Of a stretch of DNA of 5,698 nt, positions 1 to 3,000 are shown one piece after another. Numbering within the stretch: the stretch's first letter is position 1; every line of letters begins with the position of its first letter. This stretch comes from a virus (taxonomy: Duplodnaviria; Heunggongvirae; Uroviricota; Caudoviricetes), in IMG/VR virus record IMGVR_UViG_2698536372_000005. One strand, written 5' to 3'. Made by a program: the position numbers.

Positions 1-3000
1 TTGTTTCTGTTTTTCTCAAACTATCATCGTTATCCCTTTATTTCCGGCTGCGCATGGCGTGGCCTTTTTTTACGACCAGCCACTGGCAGATGGCCATCCT
101 GTAATTTGATTCCGGTTCCGGCTTTTTAACTCTGTTCCTGTACACGGGAGAAATTCGATGTCGATTAAACATTATGATGTTGTCAGGGCGGCGTCGCCGT
201 CAGACCTTGCGGAAAAGCTGACACAAAAACTGAAGGAGGGGTGGCAGCCATTTGGCAGCCCGGTGGCCATCACGCCTTATACTCTGATGCAGGCCATTGC
301 GGCGGAAGGTGATGTCACCACACCTGTGTTGGTGAAGCCGTCGGATGGAGAAGGCACAGTAATCAGCGCCACCAGAGACCCGGAGTATTACTTTGTTGTG
401 GTTCTGGCGGGGCAGTCAAACAGCATGGCATATGGTGAAGGCCTTCCGCTGCCGGAGACATATGACCGTCCGGACCCGCGCATTAAGCAGCTGGCGCGTC
501 GCAGTACGGTGACACCGGGCGGTGTCGCCTGTAAATATAACGACATCATTCCGGCGGACCATTGTCTGCATGATGTGCAGGACATGAGCCGCCTTAACCA
601 TCCGAAAGCGGACCTGTCAAAGGGGCAGTACGGAACCGTGGGGCAAGGGCTGCATATCGCCAAAAAATTGCTGCCGTTTATACCGGCGAATGCGGGCATT
701 CTGCTGGTTCCGTGCTGTCGTGGTGGTTCAGCGTTCACCACCGGAGCCGATGGCACATACAGTGACGCGAGTGGTGCCTCGGAGAATTCAACCCGCTGGG
801 GTGTGGACAAGCCGCTGTATAAGGACCTTATCGGTCGAACAAAAGCAGCACTGAAGAAGAATCCGAAAAATGTGCTGTTTGCCGTGGTGTGGATGCAGGG
901 GGAATTTGATTTTGGCGGTACGCCGGCAAATCACGCAGCACAGTTTGGTGCGCTGGTTGATAAATTCCGTGCAGACCTGGCGGATATGGCAGGGCAGTGC
1001 GTCGGTGGCTCTGCTGGCGGTGTTCCCTGGATATGTGGAGATACGACGTATTTCTGGAAGCAGAAGAACGAATCCNCCGATGGCACATACAGTGACGCGA
1101 GTGGTGCCTCGGAGAATTCAACCCGCTGGGGTGTGGACAAGCCGCTGTATAAGGACCTTATCGGTCGAACAAAAGCAGCACTGAAGAAGAACCCGAAAAA
1201 TGTGCTGTTTGCCGTGGTGTGGATGCAGGGGGAATTTGATTTTGGCGGTACGCCGGTAAATCACGCAGCACAGTTTGGTGCGCTGGTTGATAAATTCCGT
1301 GCAGACCTGGCGGATATGGCAGGTCAGTGCGTCGGTGGCTCTGCTGGCGGTGTTCCCTGGATATGTGGAGATACGACGTATTTCTGGAAGCAGAAGAACG
1401 AATCCACGTACCAGACGGTGTACGGCAGCTATAAAAACAAAACGGAAAAGAATATCCATTTCGTACCGTTCATGACCGATGAGAACGGGGTGAATGTGCC
1501 GACGAACAAACCGGAAGAAGACCCGGACATTCCGGGTATCGGATATTACGGTTCGAAATGGCGTGACAGCTCAGCCACCTGGACGTCACAGGACAGGGCG
1601 AGCCATTTCAGCGCCTGGGCACGCCGTGGGATTATTTCCGACCGTCTGGCAACGGCGATTTTGCGCCATGCGGGAAGAGTGGCGCTAAACGCGGGGGCAT
1701 CATCGACAGTATCAGAGGTGCGCCCTTCATCGCCTTCCGGTGCAGAAGCCACAGGCGTCACAACACTGCTCTCTTACCTTGCCAGCGAGTCAGAGGGAAG
1801 CCTGAAAGTACAGGGATGGTCAGCCAGTGGCGGCAGGGCAGAAGTGGTCAGCGATGCGGAGGGAACCGGAGGTAAGGCAGTGAAGCTGACCAAGGAGGCC
1901 GGTAAAAGCAGCTGGGTGCTGGAGTACGCCGCGGGCAACGGTGCGGCTCTGTTACAGAAAGGGGGGCAGATTCGCTGCCGCTTTAAGGTTTCGGGAGCGC
2001 TGGCTGCGAACCAGTATGTTATGGCGTTTTACTGGCCGGTNNNNNCAGTGCGTCGGTGGCTCTGCTGGCGGTGTTCCCTGGATATGTGGAGATACGACGT
2101 ATTTCTGGAAGCAGAAGAACGAATCCTCGTACCAGACGGTGTACGGCAGCTACAAAAACAAAACGGAAAAGAATATCCATTTCGTACCGTTCATGACGGA
2201 TGAGAACGGGGTGAATGTGCCGACGAACAAACCGGAAGAAGACCCGGACATTCCGGGTATCGGATATTACGGTTCGAAATGGCGTGACAGCTCAGCCACC
2301 TGGACGTCACAGGACAGGGCGAGCCATTTCAGTTCATGGGCTCGCCGCGGGATTATTTCCGACCGTCTGGCAACGGCGATTTTGCGCCATGCGGGAAGAG
2401 TGGCGCTAAACGCGGGGGCATCATCGACAGTATCAGAGGTGCGCCCGTCATCGCCTTCCGGTGCAGAAGCCACAGGCGTCACAGCACTGCTCTCTTACCT
2501 TGCCAGCGAGTCAGAGGGAAGCCTGAAAGTACAGGGATGGTCAGCCAGTGGCGGCAGGGCAGAAGTGGTCAGCGATGCGGAGGGAACCGGAGGTAAGGCA
2601 GTGAAGCTGACCAAGGAAGCCGGTAAAAGCAGCTGGGTGCTGGAGTACGCCGCGGGCAACGGTGCGGCTCTGTTACAGAAAGGGGGGCAGATTCGCTGCC
2701 GCTTTAAGGTTTCGGGAGCGCTGGCTGCGAACCAGTATGTTATGGCGTTTTACTGGCCGGTCTCTTCACTGCCACAGGGCGTTGCCCTGACCGGAGACGG
2801 GGGGAATAACCTGCTGGCAGCGTTCTACATCCAGACAGATGCAAAAGACCTGAATGTGATGTACCACAATGCGAAAGTGGCGACAAACAACCTGAAACTG
2901 GGAACCTTTGGCGCATTTGATAACGAATGGCATACGCTGGCTTTCCGCTTTGCCGGGAATAACAGCCTTCAGGTGACGCCGGTTATTGATGGTCAGGATG

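Follow-up and report, generated by a model that had tools for sequence, protein, structure and literature searches.

The window analysed here, i.e. the whole stretch of 5,698 nt (positions 1-5698) of the Caudoviricetes virus record IMGVR_UViG_2698536372_000005, contains a nanS-p-like esterase gene, whose start codon is located at position 158 and whose stop codon is located at 3144-3146. Downstream of this gene, domain searches identified coding regions for a DUF1378 protein (3282-3461), a DUF826 protein (3502-3747), a class II holin (3825-4040), a lysozyme (4045-4578) and the antirepressor gene ant (4853-5422), all on the plus strand. On the same strand, a 50-aa ORF lies between ant and the Rz gene. 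Only the start of Rz is present (from 5579). The gene is interrupted in codon 19 by the end of an IS600 element of the IS3 family (5634-5698, plus strand). An Rfam scan of the window yielded no family at threshold.

This gene order places nanS-p upstream of the lysis genes, within the late region of a lambdoid prophage of the non-Stx type. In finished genomes carrying this locus, tRNA genes and genes for a TerB-family protein (tciA) and a DUF3927 protein (tciB) were found upstream of the esterase gene, at the site where Stx phages carry stx. The window stops 65 nt into IS600, which is a multicopy element, and the interior of such an element is where short-read contigs usually stop. At the left end of the window no SNP between the nanS-p paralogues described below is adjoining; the nearest such difference lies 126 nt upstream, and therefore no inference was drawn from that end.

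In its collapsed form, with one copy of each of the two repeats described below removed, the gene encodes a protein of three domains. An N-terminal DUF1737 domain (PF08410, E = 2.5e-15, residues 4-50) is followed by a SASA (SGNH-type) esterase domain (PF03629, E = 3.5e-20), which contains a GQSN motif at residues 85-88, and by the lectin-like C-terminal domain DUF6645 (PF20350, E = 6.4e-75), for which vb_24B_21 provides a crystal structure. Residues 71-393 of the collapsed product matched the structure of NanS (YjhS) of E. coli (PDB 3pt5, E = 1.4e-116), and residues 423-640 matched the crystal structure of the C-terminal domain of NanS-p (PDB 6yp6, E = 3.6e-140). NanS-p proteins typically have a length of 645 aa (PMC10462455, Table 2), which is also the length of the collapsed product. 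Domain order, length and position fit a NanS-p-type prophage sialate O-acetylesterase. De-O-acetylase activity towards Neu5,9Ac2 is documented for other nanS-p alleles (PMC8065619) and is putative for the protein described here.

As written in the record, the gene does not encode this protein. Characters other than A, C, G and T occur at two places only in the whole window, namely a single n at position 1076 and five n at 2041-2045, and these divide the plus strand into three segments. Segment A (1-1075) consists of the upstream flank and the 5' 918 nt of nanS-p. Segment B (1077-2040) comprises 964 nt, and segment C (2046-5698) contains the 3' part of nanS-p and the downstream genes. The first join is flanked by GAATCC on the left and CCGATGG on the right, the second by CTGGCCGGT on the left and CAGTGCG on the right. 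The esterase gene is split into an ORF at 158-2203 (681 aa), which is out of frame past the second join, and an ORF at 1941-3146 (401 aa). The aberrant ORF of 681 aa was looked for among recorded sequences and was not found there.

Both joins coincide with direct repeats on the plus strand. The first repeat (747-1405) consists of positions 747-1075 and 1077-1405, i.e. 329 nt at an offset of 330 with three mismatches (862/1192, 927/1257 and 994/1324; 99.1% identity), and was also detected by TRF as an array at 747-1405 with a period of 330, 2.0 copies and 99% matches. The second repeat (1325-2761) consists of positions 1325-2040 and 2046-2761, i.e. 716 nt that recur 721 positions further on and differ at 11 sites (98.5% identity). 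Of these 11 differences, four base changes alter three residues and seven are synonymous. Both repeats run directly up to the ambiguous bases (distance 0 nt), and repeats of such length and identity cannot occur by chance in 5.7 kb. Of the two offsets, 330 is divisible by three and 721 is not, so that the reading frame is broken at the second join; every route of collapsing, with one copy of each repeat removed, yielded the same ORF length of 1938 nt (645 aa). The first-pass annotation had described two duplications in a nanS-p-like gene with junctions exactly at the ambiguous bases, a frame break at the second junction and a clean 1938-nt ORF after deletion of one copy of each, all of which was reproduced. 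Its identity for the first repeat was also reproduced, and that for the second repeat (about 98.3%) has to be corrected to 98.5%.

The two repeats overlap one another at 1325-1405, a point absent from the first-pass annotation, and therefore segments A and C overlap directly. This overlap comprises positions 995-1075, which are identical to 2046-2126 over 81 nt without a mismatch. In the coordinates of the collapsed sequence (prefixed g below), A reaches g1075, C starts at g995 and B spans g747-g1710, so that B lies entirely inside A and C and has no gene stretch of its own. Segment B is therefore wholly redundant. The gene had initially been regarded as assembled from three overlapping segments; the overlaps were found as described, but only A and C add sequence. 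What results is a pair of overlapping contigs (A and C) separated by a variant contig (B) that they already cover completely.

The same locus was searched for in 5,426 complete E. coli genomes, in 617 of which at least 80% of the window was covered. Among the matches listed, positions 1-5637 of the window corresponded to 4583-4586 bp of the respective record. The value of 4586 equals 5637 minus 1051 (330 + 721), i.e. both duplications are missing from these finished loci. The locus was retrieved from strain 2313 and from two O26:H11 strains, FWSEC0001 and 97-3250. In all three, the left and the right flank agree with those of the window, and one SASA esterase CDS of 1938 nt is present. Finished E. 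coli genomes with the locus, both flanks and a single-copy gene belong to O26:H11, O103 and O157. If A, the tail of B and C are combined, the resulting collapsed sequence of 4584 nt shows three differences to the locus of strain 97-3250, and the encoded protein (645 aa) has 100% identity to WP_000023293.1. The gene is an already known NanS-p allele. Judged by these comparisons, the real locus is one intact, single-copy nanS-p of 1938 nt, which encodes an ordinary esterase of 645 aa. Phage JLK-2012 (JQ347801/NC_049942) was the sole phage record with a full match to positions 1-200 of the window; it was rejected as the source, as its single-copy esterase CDS comprises 1854 nt and is followed by a different lysis module.

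The origin of the individual pieces was deduced from a comparison with two paralogues. P1 denotes the gene at the orthologous locus. These genomes also contain a second nanS-p gene, P2, which resides in another prophage whose lysis module is different. In strain 97-3250, P2 is located at 1.28 Mb and P1 at 3.31 Mb; in strain 2313, P2 is located at 3.63 Mb and P1 at 2.74 Mb. The unique part of A (1-746) is 100% identical to P1 of strains 97-3250 and FWSEC0001 and shows 13 mismatches and one gap to P2; at 226-532, P1 and P2 are told apart by 13 sites. The unique part of C (2762-5635) shows one mismatch in 2873 nt to P1, and to P2 90.6% identity over the first 1287 nt. The tail of A (747-1075) differs from P1 by one mismatch, a private synonymous G at position 994, and from P2 by three. 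The head of B (1077-1405) has two mismatches to P1 of 97-3250 and none to P2, whereas the tail of B (1325-2040) is 100% identical to P1 and differs from P2 at 11 sites; conversely, the head of C (2046-2761) has 11 mismatches to P1 and is 100% identical to P2. A Stx2a-phage paralogue (99.6% match) was considered as source of the private G in A, but was rejected: the single mismatch in this match is site 994 itself, and both the Stx2a and the Stx1a phage genes have a T there.

The surplus pieces (1077-1405 and 2046-2761) hence carry the P2 alleles at two of two and at 11 of 11 sites, respectively. By their allele content, both unique flanks are assigned to P1 and the surplus pieces to P2. A tandem duplication within one gene would not be expected to produce copies that agree with the other paralogue at every site. 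Over its whole length, segment B also shows 100% identity to the P1 allele found in strain 2313, a natural mosaic with a P2-type 5' end and a P1-type 3' end.

The variation between strains at this locus might also suggest a mixed sample, i.e. variant contigs of two related strains or phages from a metagenome or a contaminated culture, in which case the segments would represent alleles of one locus. B equals the P1 allele of strain 2313 and the head of A matches the P1 allele of 97-3250. A second strain is, however, not needed to explain the data, as the two variant types already coexist in single finished genomes, where they are paralogues located in separate prophages, and STEC genomes have five to ten functional nanS-p alleles, distributed over different prophages (PMC8065619). 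The unique flanks also bear no sign of a second strain, since they contain no ambiguous bases and show zero mismatches in 746 nt and one in 2873 nt. A mixed sample is therefore very unlikely. The proposal that the source genome carries several lambdoid prophages with near-identical esterases agrees with the occurrence of P1 and P2 in different prophages of finished genomes.

The positions at which the segments end provide information on how they were formed. The last base of A is g1075, and the SNP at g1076, the first site at which B (A) and C (T) differ, is taken up by the single n. C starts at g995, directly after the SNP at g994 that distinguishes A from B, and the end of B at g1710 directly precedes g1711, the next difference between P1 and P2. 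The overlap of 81 nt between A and C coincides precisely with the stretch free of SNPs that separates g994 from g1076. Only for the left end of B (g747) was no adjoining SNP detected among the six reference loci compared. With 15 discriminating sites in a span of 965 nt, the probability that at least three of the four internal ends adjoin such a site is P ~1.5e-5. Ends lying on SNPs would be expected if contigs stop at branches of an assembly graph, and this points to a graph-based short-read assembly. A simple de Bruijn model with a single k was tried for all ends and rejected: it fits three of them but not the left end of B, and C crosses SNP-free intervals of 133-143 nt, yet the contigs break at one of 81 nt.

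The same ends bear on the question of how the segments were joined. The segments, be they contigs put in order or Sanger or amplicon reads that overlap, might have been concatenated with N spacers manually or with the guidance of a reference instead of by an automatic paired-read scaffolder. With 1075 nt and 964 nt, A and B have the size of Sanger reads, spacers of one and five N are unusual and diagnostic of no one program, and reference-ordering tools also set overlapping contigs side by side. On the other hand, three of the four internal ends lie on paralogue SNPs, which indicates graph-based contig termination and not the ends of reads or amplicons, and if amplicons had been obtained from a mixture of paralogues, ambiguity codes would be expected within the reads, none of which are present. 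Such a concatenation is considered rather unlikely, and it would alter only the joining step and not the verdict on the duplications.

The junctions themselves were searched for with exact patterns, with wildcards at the N positions, in collections of viral, genome and metagenome contigs. All six scans for junctions 1 and 2 remained empty, so that these collections contain neither the source nor a real junction. For the complete E. coli genomes, a query for junction 2 was used that is short enough that its halves cannot be joined in a normal gene. It matched 2,667 places in 713 genomes, none of which covered both halves, and the junction was thus detected in none of the 5,426 genomes. In the phage collection, the junction-spanning queries were matched as two pieces in single-copy geometry in every record listed.

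These results weigh against a genuine tandem expansion of the gene, which had been offered as the alternative in the first-pass annotation. According to this explanation, a partial triplication by unequal recombination of nanS-p paralogues would have produced a frameshifted pseudogene, and the ambiguous bases would be coincidental low-quality calls. The duplicated arrangement is indeed the literal content of the sequence, the first duplication (330 nt) is in frame, and natural recombination between nanS-p genes exists, as exemplified by the P2/P1 mosaic P1 allele of strain 2313. Nevertheless, the sole ambiguous bases in 5.7 kb fall exactly on both junctions, the middle unit repeats only what its neighbours contain, and the overlap of A and C is 100% identical. 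The junctions occur in no collection searched (for the complete E. coli genomes, this refers to junction 2), and the second one destroys the gene. Recombination also gives no reason why three unit ends should be located on paralogue SNPs (P ~1e-5). The expansion found no support and is regarded as extremely improbable.

From the sequence comparisons it is concluded that the double duplication is almost certainly false and was made at the scaffolding or joining step of a draft assembly, and is thus not a real feature. The source genome would possess at least two near-identical prophage nanS-p genes, so the assembler would have been unable to carry one contig through the gene, and contigs would have stopped where the paralogues differ, presumably at branches of the assembly graph. 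Three contigs would then have been placed side by side with placeholder Ns: A, leading from the left flank into the gene, B as an internal variant, and C, which extends to the right flank. They would have been left unmerged because their overlaps are not identical. The joining step was possibly carried out by a scaffolder that assigns a minimal gap to overlapping contigs (negative gap). With certain scaffolders, a negative gap that could not be merged may appear in the output as one n. The earlier suggestion of stitched contig ends from different paralogues is supported by the single-copy finished loci, the P2 origin of the surplus, the ends on SNPs and the absence of the junctions from the collections searched. 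When contigs overlap, the gap size given by scaffolders is negative, and SOAPdenovo2 frequently introduces gaps between such contigs (PMC5368935).

Which allele the source genome carries at P1 depends on which contigs are faithful. In a strain similar to 97-3250, the true gene would consist of A, the tail of B and C, and B and C would be chimeric contigs that switch the paralogue in shared stretches. Should A and C be the faithful contigs, the strain would have a mosaic P1/P2 allele at P1, with the exchanges T307S, A376S and T426A in comparison to WP_000023293.1, and B would derive from another prophage. The P2-type tract of this mosaic (g1076-g1567) could possibly represent one more gene conversion of nanS-p, which would be much likelier than a real triplication. 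Under either assignment the gene is single-copy and intact.

The duplication itself is without biological significance, and its value is that of a warning for annotation and allele typing in draft assemblies. Taken at face value, the record would contain either a pseudogene with a frameshift or two spurious CDS of 681 and 401 aa, together with approximately 1 kb of extra sequence. It would also suggest a recent duplication, which is false, in a family whose copy number and allele types are used to characterise Shiga-toxin-producing E. coli and their phages. Alleles of nanS-p from short-read drafts can be chimeras of paralogues, and therefore allele typing should rest on long-read or finished assemblies.

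A genuine intragenic tandem duplication resembles the arrangement in the window with regard to head-to-tail repeats of 330 and 721 nt within one ORF. It differs in that the junction bases in the window are undefined, the units overlap, the surplus units match the other paralogue and the junctions are present in no independent assembly. A defined and reproducible junction and copies derived from the gene itself, as would characterise a genuine duplication, were not found; the surplus is P2-type and the flanks are P1-type.

Much closer is the resemblance to the false duplications described by Kelley and Salzberg (2010, PMC2864568), who reported 'duplicated overlapping contigs' (DOC), sometimes with a 'duplicated contained contig' (DCC) between them; such duplications result from near-identical, but not identical, sequences that are assembled separately and then set side by side in a scaffold (PMC2864568). 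In both cases near-identical copies are located on separate contigs with gap characters between them, the alignments reach the contig ends, a short contig is contained in its neighbours, and the differences between the copies are real variants that were not reconciled at merging. In addition, the independent finished assemblies inspected carry only one copy of this region at the corresponding locus. The case presented here differs in that the copies are paralogous prophage genes in a haploid bacterium and not haplotypes of a diploid genome, and in that the gaps comprise only one and five N.

The gene underlying this artefact corresponds to the NanS-p of STEC, as represented by z1466/L0105 of phage 933W and vb_24B_21 of phage phi24B, the chromosomal homologue of which is NanS/YjhS. 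The combination of DUF1737, SASA and DUF6645, the length of 645 aa and the site of the collapsed gene in a lambdoid prophage, with the Q/tRNA region on one side and the lysis cassette on the other, are shared. Differences are the splitting and frameshift of the gene as written in the window, which are artefacts, and the location in a non-Stx prophage, in which tciA and tciB are found in place of stx.

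The nanS-p gene of strain 2313 (L004, NZ_AP027159.1, gene at 3912-5849 of the fetched locus) was compared with two further fetched loci, L005 and L007. At the orthologous locus, this strain carries a natural mosaic of sites typical of P1, the orthologous nanS-p locus of finished E. coli genomes, and of P2, the second paralogue, which is located in another prophage of the same genomes. In the 5' part of the allele (g226-g927 in collapsed coordinates) 15 sites are of the P2 type, and 11 sites between g1076 and g1567, as well as the sites downstream of these, are of the P1 type. 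This allele points to an exchange, by gene conversion or recombination, in which nanS-p paralogues residing in different prophages of one genome took part.

In contig A of the window, position 994 carries a synonymous change private to this contig, a G (GGG for GGT, Gly279). Segment B and each of the six reference loci used for comparison possess a T at this site, and the first base of contig C corresponds to the base directly after it. This start point of contig C suggests that the reads contain both alleles, owing to either a strain-specific SNP or another paralogue, and that the G is not a random error.

Downstream of the gene, the 2873 nt of unique sequence exhibit a sole mismatch to the finished O26:H11 locus (G vs. 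A at position 4620). It is located in the 274-nt intergenic region between the lysozyme gene and the antirepressor gene ant, and 66 nt further downstream a terminator-like hairpin occurs (4686-4708). Altogether, 13 terminator-like hairpins were found in the window (1-5698; expected 5.3 ± 2.3), for example just upstream of nanS-p (46-64) and upstream of the holin gene (3757-3786). A sigma-70 consensus scan of both strands over the same range revealed no promoter-like sites (3.9 ± 2.2 expected from shuffles). The lack of such sites together with the excess of hairpins is compatible with a late operon that is read through by Q antitermination.

The final 65 nt of the window (5634-5698; TGAGGTGTACTGGCAATAGCGG...) represent the end of a copy of IS600 (IS3 family). 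This element interrupts the spanin gene Rz, which starts at 5579, in codon 19; Rz is intact in finished genomes having the same prophage. In the Stx2a phage EH1535 (LC727872.1), IS600 is likewise inserted within Rz. Since this insertion is located 40 nt further downstream, the two are independent events in the same small gene.

Inside the lysis cassette, ant (4853-5422; P22_AR_N and ORF11CD3 domains) and a 50-aa ORF are located between the lysozyme gene and Rz. The P2 prophage, in contrast, lacks ant, and its holin and lysozyme genes are separated by a YdfR-family gene; thus, the two prophages differ in the genes inserted into their lysis cassettes.

Upstream of nanS-p, the relevant stretches are window 1-157 and parts of two fetched loci (L003, 1828-2844; L001, 3403-4397). 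In Stx phages, stx follows Q and a tRNA cluster and precedes nanS-p, whereas in this prophage type the position is filled by a TerB-family gene (tciA) and a DUF3927 gene (tciB). Positions 1-200 of the window match phage JLK-2012, which originates from O55:H7, by 99.5%, but the downstream lysis module of this phage is otherwise unlike that of the window.
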